From assembly GCA_944386325.1 (NCBI GenBank), contig CALXAP010000001.1, positions 38,610 through 102,609 of the forward strand: a DNA stretch of 64,000 nucleotides. The letters are read 5' to 3'. Origin of the DNA: an uncultured Clostridia bacterium. Lineage in GTDB: Bacteria; Bacillota; Clostridia; TANB77; CAG-508. A model generated the notes under the pieces. The model saw only the letters and a program-made list of their open reading frames with translations, did not search any database and had not been told where the DNA came from. This document shows, piece by piece, positions 16,288 to 18,951 of this stretch (its first letter is position 1; every line of letters begins with the position of its first letter). The position numbers and the translations under genes were made by a program.

Positions 16288-17445
16288 ATGGCCAATTATG
16301 TATATAGAGCGGTATTAGAAAACTACAGTAAAGAAGAAGGAATAAAATGTAAAGAAAAAGATTCTGATAAATCTTTAAGTTATCATGTTAATTTTGGAAG
16401 TAAAAAGAATGTGAAAACAAAATATATATCTACTAGTAAAAAAATAGGAATTGCTGCATATAAATATGCAATAGGTAAAGTTAATGAAAACAGAATTAAA
16501 AGATCAAAAATAGTATTAATAGATTTAGATAAATTACCAAAAGAACAAAAATATTATGACTTAACAGATGAAACTGTATTAAAAGAACAAAAAATTAGTC
16601 GTATGTCGAAAAATTATTGTAAATCAGATGCAGAAGTTACAATAGAAGGAGATATAGGACCTGAATGTGTAAAAGAAATACCACCAATGTTAGTAGATAT
16701 TTTGTTTGCACTTGAAAGTTCTGGTAATGCAAATAAAATGTTCTATGATATGTTATTAGACAGAGTGGCTGAAGGCGATATGGAACTAGATAAAATAATT
16801 GAAAAATGTAAATTTAATAAATTAGAGCAAAATTTTATTAAATCATATTATACAGATATGAATAAATTAGAAGAAACGGCTAAACAAATATTGCCTGAGA
16901 TGTTGGATGAGAAAAAAGAATATAATAGAGAGTTTATAGCAAATTGTATAAGAACACAGATAATAAAAAATGTTGTAGCATCACAATTACATAGAGATTT
17001 AAAATATTATACAGGACCATTAGAAGGAAAATTACAATCTCATTATAGAACAGAGAAAGATAGATTAAAAAAAGATTGTCATTATTTTAATGATTATTTA
17101 TCAATAAAAGTAAATAATGAGGATATGATAAAACTTCCTGGTGGAGTAGAATATAGAATAAATAATAAAAATGAGGTTGATTTATTACAGGTACTAGAGG
17201 CACATTTAATTAAAGAAAACTATGAAAACCCTTCAATTGCAAGAGAAAGTGATAACGGATATAAATTATTTAATGGAATAAGAATAGAGTTAGATAAAAA
17301 AATAGAAAAAAATAATAAAGAAATAAGTTTAGATGAGATAAAGAGTACATTAAAAATAGGAAATGCAAAAGAAAGAAAAGAAGTAGATAATTATATTAGA
17401 AAACAAATGCAAAGACAGAGGCAAGAACACGAAAGAGGTGAATAA
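16288..17445 (+). CDS. hypothetical protein (385 aa), gene 1 of an unassigned four-gene island
   Basis: RBS GAAGGAG. N-terminal region has R7 ... ISTSK(48-50), a spacing loosely reminiscent of the R-S-E ADP-ribosyltransferase signature (speculative). Long charged helical C-terminal half. Confidence 0.55.
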   Translation: MANYVYRAVLENYSKEEGIKCKEKDSDKSLSYHVNFGSKKNVKTKYISTSKKIGIAAYKYAIGKVNENRIKRSKIVLIDLDKLPKEQKYYDLTDETVLKEQKISRMSKNYCKSDAEVTIEGDIGPECVKEIPPMLVDILFALESSGNANKMFYDMLLDRVAEGDMELDKIIEKCKFNKLEQNFIKSYYTDMNKLEETAKQILPEMLDEKKEYNREFIANCIRTQIIKNVVASQLHRDLKYYTGPLEGKLQSHYRTEKDRLKKDCHYFNDYLSIKVNNEDMIKLPGGVEYRINNKNEVDLLQVLEAHLIKENYENPSIARESDNGYKLFNGIRIELDKKIEKNNKEISLDEIKSTLKIGNAKERKEVDNYIRKQMQRQRQEHERGE

Positions 17446-17446
17446 A

Positions 17447-17893
17447 ATGAATAGATATACAAATGAAGATTATTGTAGAGCTTATTCAGAAGTTTTAGGA
17501 ATATTAAGATATATACCTAAAAAGGATTTAATAAAAATACCAAAAGATGAGATAAAGTTTCTTATAAAAAATATGGATAATAAACATAATTACAAATACA
17601 ATTTTAATAAACCATTTGAAGATCAAAAATTAATGAGATTAAGTAAAATAATTATATCAAATATTTATATAAAGTATTTAGCAAAAAATAAAGAAGAATT
17701 ATTAGAAAATGAAAGAAAAGAAATTCTGAAGTTAGAAGAAGAAAATAGAAAAATATATAACACAGATAATATATTTAGAAATAAGAATTTAGATATTGAA
17801 AAAGATGAAAATAATAGTTTGATTGTTATAGAAAAACAAGGATTTTTTAGGAAAATAATAGATAAAATTAGGAGATTGTTCAAGTTGACATAA
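17447..17893 (+). CDS. hypothetical protein (148 aa), translationally coupled to the 16288 gene
   Basis: ATG 17447 overlaps the upstream stop (GAGGTGAATAAAATG). Lys/Glu-rich helical protein. Confidence 0.5.
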   Translation: MNRYTNEDYCRAYSEVLGILRYIPKKDLIKIPKDEIKFLIKNMDNKHNYKYNFNKPFEDQKLMRLSKIIISNIYIKYLAKNKEELLENERKEILKLEEENRKIYNTDNIFRNKNLDIEKDENNSLIVIEKQGFFRKIIDKIRRLFKLT

Positions 17894-17913
17894 AAACCAA
17901 AATATGGTATAAT
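17885..17913 (+). promoter_or_regulatory. perfect consensus sigma-A promoter TTGACA-17-TATAAT
   Basis: TTGACA at 17885-17890 and TATAAT at 17908-17913, spacer exactly 17, about 55 nt upstream of gene 17970. Confidence 0.6.
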
Positions 17914-17969
17914 ATTTAAGTAAAAATTTTTATTAAAAAATTAATTGATTTTGAGGAGGAATCCGAAAG

Positions 17970-18263
17970 ATGAATATTAAAGAAATTATTTATGGTGACG
18001 AAGGTGTTTTAAATCGTTTTAGAAATGGAGATTATACCATTTCTAATGAGGAGAAAAGCACAATATTAGATTTTGCTAGAAAAGTAAATTCTGGTGTCAA
18101 AGAGGGAAATTTAAACCCTCAGGACTTTGCTCTTTACAGTGAGTTAATGTATTTTTTTATACATTATTCTGAAGAGGTTGATGGAGCAGAAGAACTTCTT
18201 GATGAGATTTATGGGGAAGTTCAAGATGGATTAGATTTTGATTACAATGAGGAGGATGAATAA
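17970..18263 (+). CDS. hypothetical small acidic protein (97 aa)
   Basis: RBS GAGGAGG. C-terminus DGLDFDYNEEDE is strongly acidic. The stop is followed 4 nt later by the next start. Confidence 0.55.
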   Translation: MNIKEIIYGDEGVLNRFRNGDYTISNEEKSTILDFARKVNSGVKEGNLNPQDFALYSELMYFFIHYSEEVDGAEELLDEIYGEVQDGLDFDYNEEDE

Positions 18264-18267
18264 TAAT

Positions 18268-18912
18268 ATGGCGACACGTCCATCATGGAGAATAGTAAAA
18301 ACGGATAACTTTATCAAAATTGTAAAAAATGACTTTGAATTTAAATTTAATCCAGGTTTTTCTGTTACTCAAAAACGGAAAAATGTAGTTGCTTTACACC
18401 AAGCAATTGGTGATAAAGCATTAGAGGTTTCAACTAAATCTGATCTGAAACTCGGAAGAATGTTAAGTGCATTCAATTTAAGAATCAACGGAATACCACT
18501 TGAGTGTGTATTCCAATCTGCTAAGGTTTATCAATATGGAGGACCTTATAAAGACCTCTTAAATGTGTCTCCAAAAGATGCTAAAAGAGATGAGCGTCAC
18601 AAGAGTTCAGGAAAATTAATCTACTTCGAATATGAAGGAAAAAGATTTCCTCTTGAACCAAAAACATTCTTTTATGACTTTATTTATATAAAGGCTGTAA
18701 AAGAGTGTATTCCTTTGGAGGAGGTAAAAGATATAGTTCAGTATTCGCATTTTTCGGATATTGAATTCAATCCTAAAAAATCAATTAACTGCCAAGCTAA
18801 AAGCGTTGCTATAATTAAAGCAATGCTGATGGTATTTGGCGAAGTTCCTCATATCAATGATATTGAGGAATTTAAAAAATTTTACAAAGTAATTCAGGCA
18901 GAAAATGCTTGA
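18268..18912 (+). CDS. hypothetical protein (214 aa)
   Basis: ATG 18268 with RBS GAGGAGG. No recognisable motif. Followed by terminator 18918-18951. Confidence 0.55.
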   Translation: MATRPSWRIVKTDNFIKIVKNDFEFKFNPGFSVTQKRKNVVALHQAIGDKALEVSTKSDLKLGRMLSAFNLRINGIPLECVFQSAKVYQYGGPYKDLLNVSPKDAKRDERHKSSGKLIYFEYEGKRFPLEPKTFFYDFIYIKAVKECIPLEEVKDIVQYSHFSDIEFNPKKSINCQAKSVAIIKAMLMVFGEVPHINDIEEFKKFYKVIQAENA

Positions 18913-18917
18913 ATTAC

Positions 18918-18951
18918 AGAGAATCTCCCAGTTTATCTGGGAGATTCTTTT
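18918..18951 (+). terminator. rho-independent terminator (AGAATCTCCCAG / CTGGGAGATTCT + T-run)
   Basis: Perfect 12-bp stem followed by TTTTAT. Confidence 0.65.

Follow-up and report, generated by a model that had tools for sequence, protein, structure and literature searches.

What do the four plus-strand genes that lie between spoIIID and the PBP1A gene of an uncultured Clostridia bacterium encode, and do they act together? We analysed them in a window of 64,000 nucleotides (nt) of genomic DNA (assembly GCA_944386325.1, contig CALXAP010000001.1, positions 38,610 to 102,609 of the forward strand); positions without a contig name are those of the window. An initial annotation of this DNA had listed four consecutive open reading frames (ORFs) of 385, 148, 97 and 214 amino acids (aa), here called genes 1 to 4, had seen no recognisable domains in them and had guessed at a toxin and antidote system made of two coupled pairs. 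The four ORFs were reproduced with these sizes (table 1), as were the flanks: a SpoIIID gene at 15853-16131 on the minus strand and a gene for a penicillin-binding protein (PBP) with Transgly and Transpeptidase domains at 19313-22009. The flank identities were read from Pfam marks on a syntenic metagenomic contig, L001 (L numbers denote the fetched DNA), on which UvrA comes next after the PBP. We consider it fairly probable that the four genes form one chromosomal writer/eraser module that puts ADP-ribose on nucleic-acid bases and takes it off again, with an architecture resembling that of a toxin-antitoxin or defence system. This reading starts from domain identities, catalytic residues, gene order, a promoter and a case of co-loss, from which a substrate, a toxicity, an antidote relation and roles for genes 2 and 3 are proposed.

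The most clear-cut assignment was that of gene 4. It matched PF22397, the 'DarT1-associated NADAR antitoxin' family, over positions 1-210 of the 212 in the profile with 228 bits at a cutoff of 27 (E = 1.1e-67), and it matched the solved NADAR of Geobacter lovleyi (8BAT) with E = 4.4e-38. Mutagenesis of the E. coli C7 NADAR has shown that E88, K95, K115 and D171 are needed in guanine-ADP-ribose hydrolysis and in rescue from DarT1, and K115 has been proposed to be specific to antitoxin NADARs (PMC11543638). Their counterparts in gene 4 are E79, K86, K106 and D164, with E166 equivalent to E173, and the successive spacings are +7, +20 and +58 compared with +7, +20 and +56 in the C7 protein. The motifs ECVFQSAK, DAK and DIEFNP surround these residues, which are conserved in all NADARs of the module. 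Judged from its sequence, gene 4 is thus a NADAR of the DarT1-associated subfamily with all catalytic residues present. NADARs, including those of DarT1 type, reverse guanosine ADP-ribosylation on both DNA and RNA, while thymine-linked or phosphate-linked ADP-ribose is not reversed by them (PMC11543638; PMC11833690). An in-frame CGG that had been pointed out in gene 4 turned out to be uninformative.

In viral contigs, the relatives of gene 4 (41-45% identical) are immediately preceded by a DarT-domain gene, the canonical DarTG1 arrangement. Within the module this slot is taken by gene 3, and the ADP-ribosyltransferase (ART) is of another class, which shows that the position of the ART partner has been swapped. 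Canonical viral DarT-NADAR pairs were seen at 69-1087 of L025 and at 3310-5696 of L026. The DarT domain of L026 is the N-terminus of a 563-aa protein, and its large C-terminal extension parallels the architecture of gene 1.

Gene 1 encodes the ART. Its residues 22-128 passed the threshold of PF24494 (DUF7587) with 29 bits at a cutoff of 27, and the same family was matched by 28 of 33 relatives; together with the NADAR match of gene 4, this removes the idea of a block with no recognisable domains. A word-indexed search found four close relatives, and an exhaustive HMMER search of 1.84 billion proteins found 88 representative proteins. These vary in build: some carry the domain N-terminally in a protein of about 400 aa, some are short stand-alone domains, and others are larger proteins with the domain at the C-terminus (for example, residues 265-393 of 408 and 439-555 of 559). 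An R...STS spacing in gene 1 had been offered as a speculative link to R-S-E ADP-ribosyltransferases. R7 and S48-T49-S50 are indeed 41 residues apart, and both are conserved family positions: S48 and E116 are invariant and R7 is present in at least 90% of members (alignments A1 and A2), as is Y60 (10-sequence alignment A2). The speculation thereby gained substance from the conservation of R7, S48 and E116, from a profile match and from fold searches.

The profile match was to a toxin. A single-sequence search of the PDB with gene 1 returned nothing, and the family profile matched one entry, 9ZDM chain B (RhsF-CT), with E = 6.7e-14; hhalign gave this pair a probability of 97.6%. RhsF-CT of Chromobacterium violaceum shows toxicity in E. 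coli, and the structures nearest to its ART fold are ScARP and EcPltA. R1403, Y1456 and E1497 are required, S1445 contributes, and a small immunity protein, RhsFi, neutralises RhsF-CT by occluding the active site (bioRxiv 10.64898/2025.12.06.692724). R7, S48, Y60 and E116 of gene 1 aligned to R1403, S1445, Y1456 and E1497. RhsF-CT is the same protein as Tre-Thr, whose ADP-ribosylation target is the GGU anticodon of charged tRNA-Thr; the favoured acceptor is G35 (PMC13617354). An AlphaFold2 model of gene 1 (predicted local distance difference test (pLDDT) 84.7, predicted template modelling score 0.80) was compared with known structures, with neighbour scores of 9.1 for EcPltA, 8.9 for TreX, 8.6 for CARDS toxin, 8.1 for pertussis S1, 7.7 for Scabin, 6.3 for pierisin-1 and 5.1-6.3 for DarT. 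These model-based fold searches place the ART fold of the Tre-Thr/RhsF-CT family in gene 1.

Three further parts follow the ART domain in the predicted protein: a helical domain, a beta-rich C-terminal domain and a terminal helix. Neither fold nor family searches matched the C-terminal domain. Gene 1, in which the ART domain is N-terminal and begins at residue 4, was found to lack a signal peptide and any LXG, Rhs, PT-repeat or other trafficking domain. Purifying selection is strong on the ART domain (ratio of nonsynonymous to synonymous polymorphism, pN/pS, 0.05-0.13), while the C-terminal domain is much freer (0.36-0.41). Within residues ~276-350, 28 of 75 positions differ from the otherwise near-identical L008 and L002 and all are identical to L007, which, at the level of sequence, points to recombining alleles of the C-terminal domain (an allelic mosaic). 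Identity to L008 and L002 is 96-100% upstream of gene 1 and through roughly its first two-thirds, and falls to 81-90% over 17085-17685, which covers residues ~265-385 and the start of gene 2; L008 returns to 96-100% downstream. L007 equals the window in this segment but differs from it at gene 1 residues ~150-225.

The layout of these genes is conserved well beyond the window. An ART gene, a gene for a protein of ~145 aa, one for an acidic protein of ~90 aa and a NADAR gene follow each other in L012, L013 and L014/15, in which gene 1 is 33-43% identical. In these divergent modules the ART protein has 400-426 aa, the acidic protein has ~90 aa and an isoelectric point (pI) of 4.1-4.4, and the NADAR-DarT1 protein has 208-210 aa (E = 1e-67 to 1e-69). 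Close relatives, with gene 1 85-91% identical, carry the same four genes, one of them with uvrB instead of spoIIID upstream, and L009/L010 and L011 carry the first three or two module genes before the contig ends. The L012 module stands after cotJABC and before a polyprenyl synthase gene, and in L013, L014 and L015 genes for a PemK toxin and a GNAT protein precede the module, with an Asp/Asn-tRNA synthetase gene downstream of it. Across lineages the flanks are thus spoIIID-PBP1A, uvrB-PBP1A, cotJABC-polyprenyl synthase, PemK/GNAT-aspS and gatB. Among all DNA fetched, hidden Markov models (HMMs) built for the families of gene 1 and gene 3 matched module loci only. By gene order and content, then, the four genes are one module and not two independent pairs. 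The earlier guess of a toxin and antidote system holds in its general idea and in casting gene 1 as the effector. Its division into gene 1 with gene 2, and gene 3 as the antitoxin of gene 4, does not fit the evidence; gene 4 is an eraser enzyme rather than a second effector.

The module is a rare one, limited to uncultured Clostridia. A genome-collection scan with the 10-sequence alignment found it in one species representative among 185,579, an uncultured Clostridia metagenome-assembled genome. Scans of viral contigs found no relatives of gene 1 or gene 3. A viral-contig match of gene 2 (L024) was judged spurious, being partial, in an 1866-aa ORF and limited to a low-complexity K/E-rich stretch. 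PADLOC, NCBIfam and PHROGs held nothing significant for any of the four proteins. None of the module neighbourhoods was seen in a prophage or defence island and all contexts were chromosomal, so that the phage anti-defence origin that had been considered for the block finds no backing. Its GC content (0.20-0.33) does not mark it as foreign compared with the flanks (0.20-0.35).

One lineage links the loss of the NADAR to a change in the ART. The variant loci in L028-L030 (about 3724-5717 in each) are syntenic with L014 but have neither the NADAR gene nor the two genes that come next. The catalytic R of their ART is replaced by K (MILFKA...), the ART is frameshifted in two of the three contigs (L028 and L030), there is no internal promoter, and 12 nt separate gene 3 from gene 2. 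Wherever a NADAR is present, the R, S, Y and E of the ART are intact. Replacement of the catalytic arginine by lysine is a classic detoxifying change in pertussis toxin (R9K) and cholera toxin. Comparison of these loci suggests that NADAR loss coincides with ART inactivation, as in a 'natural experiment'. A hairpin was seen 3' of gene 3 in L028-L030. Separately, the gene 1 homologue at 5917-7450 of L012 is split by an A9 frameshift right after the ART domain, giving a 172-aa ART-only ORF (identical in kind to the protein P0026) and a 325-aa ORF. A sequencing error, a pseudogene or a phase-variable tract may lie behind this frameshift.

The two halves of the module are punctuated by promoters. 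A consensus promoter had been described between the gene pairs, and it matched at 12/12 positions, with a 17-nt spacer and a TG extension. Exact TTGACA-N17-TATAAT sites occur three times in the 64-kb window, compared with 0.05 expected. The window's own lineage and the divergent L009, L012 and L013/L014 all keep the 12/12 internal promoter, despite diverged non-coding surroundings. Its -35 lies inside the last gene 2 codons in most lineages and just 3' of the gene 2 stop in L009; this embedding accounts for the conserved ...KLT C-terminus of gene 2. A comparable TTGACT/TTGACA ... TATAAT arrangement stands 5' of gene 1 in L001, L002, L005, L007 and L009. The terminator reported at the end of the block was also found, with a perfect stem of 13 bp (18919-18931 / 18937-18949), a 5-nt loop and a U-run; its hairpin (free energy -24.3 kcal/mol, z -5.6) was missed by a simple scanner.

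Table 1. Features of the four-gene module in the window.
Feature	Position	Strand	Remarks
Promoter-like site 5' of gene 1	16229..16257	+	TTGACT-17-TATAAT, 11/12; putative function
Gene 1 (385 aa)	16288..17445	+	
Gene 1 residues 1-132, ART domain	16288..16683	+	DUF7587 / Tre-Thr family, R7 / S48-T-S / Y60 / E116
Gene 1 residues ~133-234, conserved helical domain	16684..16989	+	Tentatively sigma-factor region 4-like (helix-turn-helix, HTH)
Gene 1 residues ~241-385, beta-rich C-terminal domain and terminal helix	17008..17445	+	AlphaFold2 secondary structure; variable, recombining
Gene 2, 148-aa (from ATG) all-helical protein with conserved C-terminal amphipathic helix	17447..17893	+	1 nt past gene 1 stop
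Internal consensus sigma-A promoter	17885..17913	+	TTGACA-17-TATAAT, TG-extended
Gene 3, 97-aa acidic protein	17970..18263	+	pI ~4.1
Gene 4 (214 aa), NADAR ADP-ribosyl (guanine-base) hydrolase, DarT1-associated subfamily	18268..18912	+	Predicted antitoxin / eraser
Intrinsic terminator ending module	18914..18955	+	Hairpin and U-run

Genes 2 and 3 belong to families of their own. The stop/start overlap of genes 1 and 2 given in the initial annotation does not exist with the ATG at 17447, which lies 1 nt past the TAA; it arises, with 8 nt, only if gene 2 starts at the GTG at 17438 (151 aa). We favour the ATG because the homologues have the N-termini MNRY, MNVY and MTVY. The gene 2 family comprises 82 clusters of 130-164 aa, none with a Pfam domain. 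The AlphaFold2 model of gene 2 (pLDDT 81.6), confidently helical over residues 1-104, has helices at 6-104 and 133-145 with a disordered linker between them, and a Foldseek search of this model against the PDB gave nothing with E below 2. In the module gene 2 always follows the ART gene, and the family is also found without ART or NADAR. Such homologues were seen at 3531-7277 of L016 (after an mTERF-repeat protein and before a 110-aa HEGVH-motif protein and a 482-aa protein with no assignment), at 3947-5429 of L020 (after a 349-aa protein, likewise unassigned), at 172-1889 of L022 (a Fic protein with a winged HTH lies 270 nt upstream) and at 4797-5642 of L018 (in a mostly unannotated block beside an HU-like gene). 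Members of the gene 2 family may act, in a generic way, as partners of larger proteins that bind nucleic acids or resemble toxins.

Gene 3 is strongly acidic, as had been stated (pI 4.05, 25 D+E compared with 7 K+R), and 4 nt separate it from gene 4. The C-terminal DGLDFDYNEEDE tail that had been highlighted is not conserved in distant homologues. Gene 3 had no match in Pfam, NCBIfam, PHROGs, PADLOC or the PDB. A search with a concatenated gene 2 and gene 3 profile returned gene 2 relatives only, and distant gene 3 homologues were left unsampled by it. For genes 2 and 3, single-sequence PDB searches stayed at chance level (E of at least 0.15) and profile searches at E of at least 0.12, and neither had a sequence match to any chain of 9ZDM, the entry that contains RhsFi. 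The idea that gene 3 might be a degenerate DarT remnant was rejected, with no DarT signal at E up to 1.

How does the module compare with known systems? DarTG1 (Schuller et al. 2023, PMC11543638) has the same PF22397 antidote subfamily and catalytic residues, the same small self-contained build and the same predicted logic, in which an ART writes a toxic guanine ADP-ribose mark and a co-encoded NADAR erases it. The module, however, has no DarT (PF14487/DUF4433, ARTD/PARP-like). Its ART is unrelated to DarT, being of the R-S/Y-E cholera/pertussis type (ARTC) with ~250 extra residues, two extra conserved genes lie between ART and NADAR, the NADAR has its own consensus promoter, and the substrate may be RNA, compared with single-stranded DNA for DarTG1. 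As no DarT gene adjoins the NADAR, the module falls outside DarTG1. Tre-Thr has a homologous catalytic domain with R, S, Y and E aligned to gene 1, but it is the cleaved C-terminal tip of an Rhs protein delivered by a type VI secretion system (T6SS) from a Gram-negative host, is held by the binding immunity protein RhsFi and has no known hydrolase. The gene 1 domain is instead N-terminal in a predicted cytoplasmic Clostridia protein and linked to an eraser enzyme, and gene 1 thus does not show the delivery of an Rhs/T6SS C-terminal tip with a binding immunity protein.

The myxobacterial YarT-YbiA pair (Cihlova et al. 2024, PMC11125620) resembles the module, and is the precedent for it, in joining a non-DarT, Rhs-C-terminal-toxin-like ART to an antitoxin of the NADAR superfamily. 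It differs in having two genes, an H-Y-E ART (HYD1/Tre23-like, ARTD-type) and a minimal YbiA-type NADAR, whereas the module has an R-S/Y-E ART whose nearest folds are among ARTC toxins, an extended DarT1-type NADAR and four genes. ScARP, Scabin and pierisin (PMC12945103) have a Q-x-E motif and are mostly secreted, and stand-alone NADARs such as SCO5665 are not operon-linked to them; gene 1 has D-x-E in place of Q-x-E and is operon-linked to its NADAR. The pairing of this ART with a NADAR and the four-gene layout were not found in the databases and literature searched. Full-text literature searches returned no paper mentioning DUF7587, the Tre-Thr paper (PMC13617354) mentions neither NADAR nor any hydrolase, and in a survey of NAD and ADP-ribose systems the only NADARs described are those accompanying DarT-like toxin-antitoxin systems and those in phage contexts.

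We propose the following mechanism for the writer/eraser module. Gene 1 would be a non-secreted cytoplasmic ART of the Tre-Thr/RhsF-CT (DUF7587) family that uses NAD+. Since NADARs remove guanine ADP-ribose and the sole characterised relative of the ART modifies a G-containing anticodon, we infer that gene 1 modifies guanine. It would ADP-ribosylate this base in RNA (a tRNA anticodon, as for Tre-Thr) or in DNA, leading to growth arrest. Gene 4, as an active DarT1-type NADAR, would hydrolyse guanine-linked ADP-ribose and serve as the enzymatic antidote. Genes 3 and 4 are predicted to be co-transcribed from their own consensus, presumably strong, promoter, and the antidote would therefore be made independently of the toxin operon, probably in excess. 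Gene 2 would be translationally coupled to the ART, and gene 3 to the NADAR in most lineages. Both would be obligatory accessory proteins, at least one of which we guess to be a stoichiometric inhibitor or regulator of the ART. Binding of the ART by gene 2 or gene 3 would represent the binding half of an antitoxin function; in DarG, binding and hydrolysis are combined in one protein. Such restraint would explain why L029 tolerates an intact-length ART without a NADAR.

A more elaborate version is possible, although we hold it as tentative and rather doubtful. The module would then be a hitherto unrecognised four-component conflict system of Clostridia that acts by reversible guanine ADP-ribosylation of a tRNA anticodon or of DNA, with a DNA-binding-like domain and a rapidly recombining C-terminal 'sensor' in gene 1, and with restraint by genes 2 and 3 and by a constitutive NADAR. 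The motif TTAATTGA(C/T)TTT was seen at the -35 of the gene 1 promoter (16225-16236) and again in the gene 3 leader (17941-17952), and an AT-rich palindrome with the core TAAAAATTTTTA (17910-17943) lies just downstream of the internal -10. The motif and the palindrome are possible candidate operators for the HTH-like domain of gene 1; such motifs are common at 20% GC.

Several points weigh against the proposal of a writer/eraser module for guanine. The four proteins are known here solely from sequence comparison and predicted structures, and the top-scoring structural neighbours of gene 1 (EcPltA, pertussis S1 and TreX) modify proteins and not nucleic acids. At -2 from the catalytic Glu, gene 1 and its family have D or S where ScARP has the Q that holds guanine. 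The acceptor of Tre-Thr (G35 or U36) has not been chemically proven (PMC13617354), which makes the reversibility of the family's product by a NADAR an inference. L029 keeps an intact-length ART with genes 2 and 3 in the absence of a NADAR, and the NADAR may therefore not be the only, or an essential, antidote; the coincidence of NADAR loss with ART inactivation comes from one lineage, and the K variant may still be partly active. Members of the gene 2 family also stand beside unrelated proteins, which argues against a dedicated immunity protein and for a more generic role. Finally, with no prophage or defence-island context and a silent PADLOC search, a role in defence is unsupported either way.

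The nature of the structural neighbours raises the question of whether the ART targets a protein, like the pertussis-like toxins, TreX and TreTu, while the NADAR processes free ADP-ribose derivatives or counters foreign guanine-modifying toxins. EcPltA, pertussis S1, CARDS and TreX, all protein ARTs, are the top neighbours of gene 1, L029 retains the ART and genes 2 and 3 without the NADAR, and YbiA-type NADARs are described as acting on substrates other than ADP-ribose, namely riboflavin intermediates, in work cited in PMC9503650. We nevertheless regard a protein target as unlikely. tRNA is what the closest sequence relative (E = 7e-14) modifies, and for no other relative has the target been mapped; gene 4 sits in the DarT1-associated subfamily with a D171-type catalytic arrangement and a counterpart of K115; and the linkage is kept across deep divergence, with NADAR loss coinciding with ART inactivation. 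Export of gene 1 as an interbacterial, polymorphic-toxin-like effector, with gene 2 and/or gene 3 as immunity proteins and the NADAR as extra protection for self or against kin toxins, would suit the C-terminal position of the same ART domain in larger family proteins and in the T6SS effector RhsF, the neutralisation of RhsF by a small active-site-occluding immunity protein, and the resemblance of the recombining gene 1 segment to cassette swapping in polymorphic toxins. But the toxin domain of gene 1 is N-terminal, with no signal peptide or trafficking domain, no secretion genes are nearby in any context, and neither gene 2 nor gene 3 showed detectable similarity to the PDB entry that contains RhsFi. 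An enzymatic eraser with its own consensus promoter is, moreover, a hallmark of intracellular DarTG-type systems, and we give export a poor chance.

The genomic contexts bear on two other explanations. All of them are chromosomal and of housekeeping or sporulation type (spoIIID, cotJABC), with no adjacent mobile, prophage or defence genes, as might be expected if the module were an endogenous regulator that tunes growth, stationary phase or sporulation by reversible ADP-ribosylation of DNA or tRNA. PMC12170906 provides a precedent, in that DarTG is proposed there as such a regulator in Mycobacterium tuberculosis, and the possible HTH domain of gene 1 would suit DNA targeting or autoregulation. 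This reading is improbable in view of the patchy spread (one of 185,579 species representatives, and 88 gene 1 representatives among 1.84 billion proteins), the differing chromosomal sites, the decay variants (frameshifts, R to K and NADAR loss) and the allelic mosaicism, a pattern more in keeping with an accessory conflict element than with a core regulator. The initial annotation would have yielded had the four proteins been ordinary sporulation or structural proteins, and the searches did not show them to be so. That an ART pair and a NADAR pair are mere neighbours with no functional link could draw on the two separate promoters and on the unequal divergence of the halves (compared with L001, gene 1 is 89% and gene 4 100% identical). 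We find such a coincidence highly improbable, as the four-gene order is kept at 33-43% gene 1 identity with unrelated flanks and the HMMs of genes 1 and 3 find their families in the module only. The writer/eraser module for nucleic-acid bases is thus the explanation we prefer.

Some features of the window lie outside the module. The two exact TTGACA-N17-TATAAT sites other than the internal promoter are at 7609-7637 (minus strand) and 11348-11376 (plus strand). A perfect-looking hairpin of 20 bp at 15816-15863 stands between a DUF2142-family gene (14241-15788, plus strand) and the convergent spoIIID and covers the final 11 nt of the latter; it is probably a bidirectional terminator. The N-terminus of the PBP1A gene (19313-19800) carries a K/E/N-rich low-complexity extension of ~150 residues with the internal repeats KLILVVDDKEK and KLVLVVDDENK. 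A 232-aa antisense ORF at 19276-19974 over this N-terminus is almost certainly an artefact, as judged from the composition of the low-complexity extension.

Toxin-antitoxin systems made of an ART and an eraser (DarTG1, DarTG2 and YarT-YbiA) are a young field in which each pairing has revealed a new nucleic-acid modification or specificity. The pairing described here is new in that a DarT1-type NADAR is wired to an ART of the cholera/pertussis class in place of DarT. The anticodon target of Tre-Thr was reported as recently as 2026. From the conserved linkage, the product of the Tre-Thr family is predicted to be a guanine-linked ADP-ribose that a NADAR can remove. The module also brings two new protein families, that of gene 3, seen in the module only, and the broader one of gene 2, either of which may be a new regulator of ARTs. 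Its intact, R-to-K, frameshifted and NADAR-less variants form a natural series to guide genetics, and its role may lie in addiction, phage defence or growth control. If the four-component version were true, the gene linkage would be the first evidence for a NADAR-reversible guanine adduct made by the Tre-Thr family, and anticodon ADP-ribosylation would be, beyond a weapon, a switchable and reversible block of translation.

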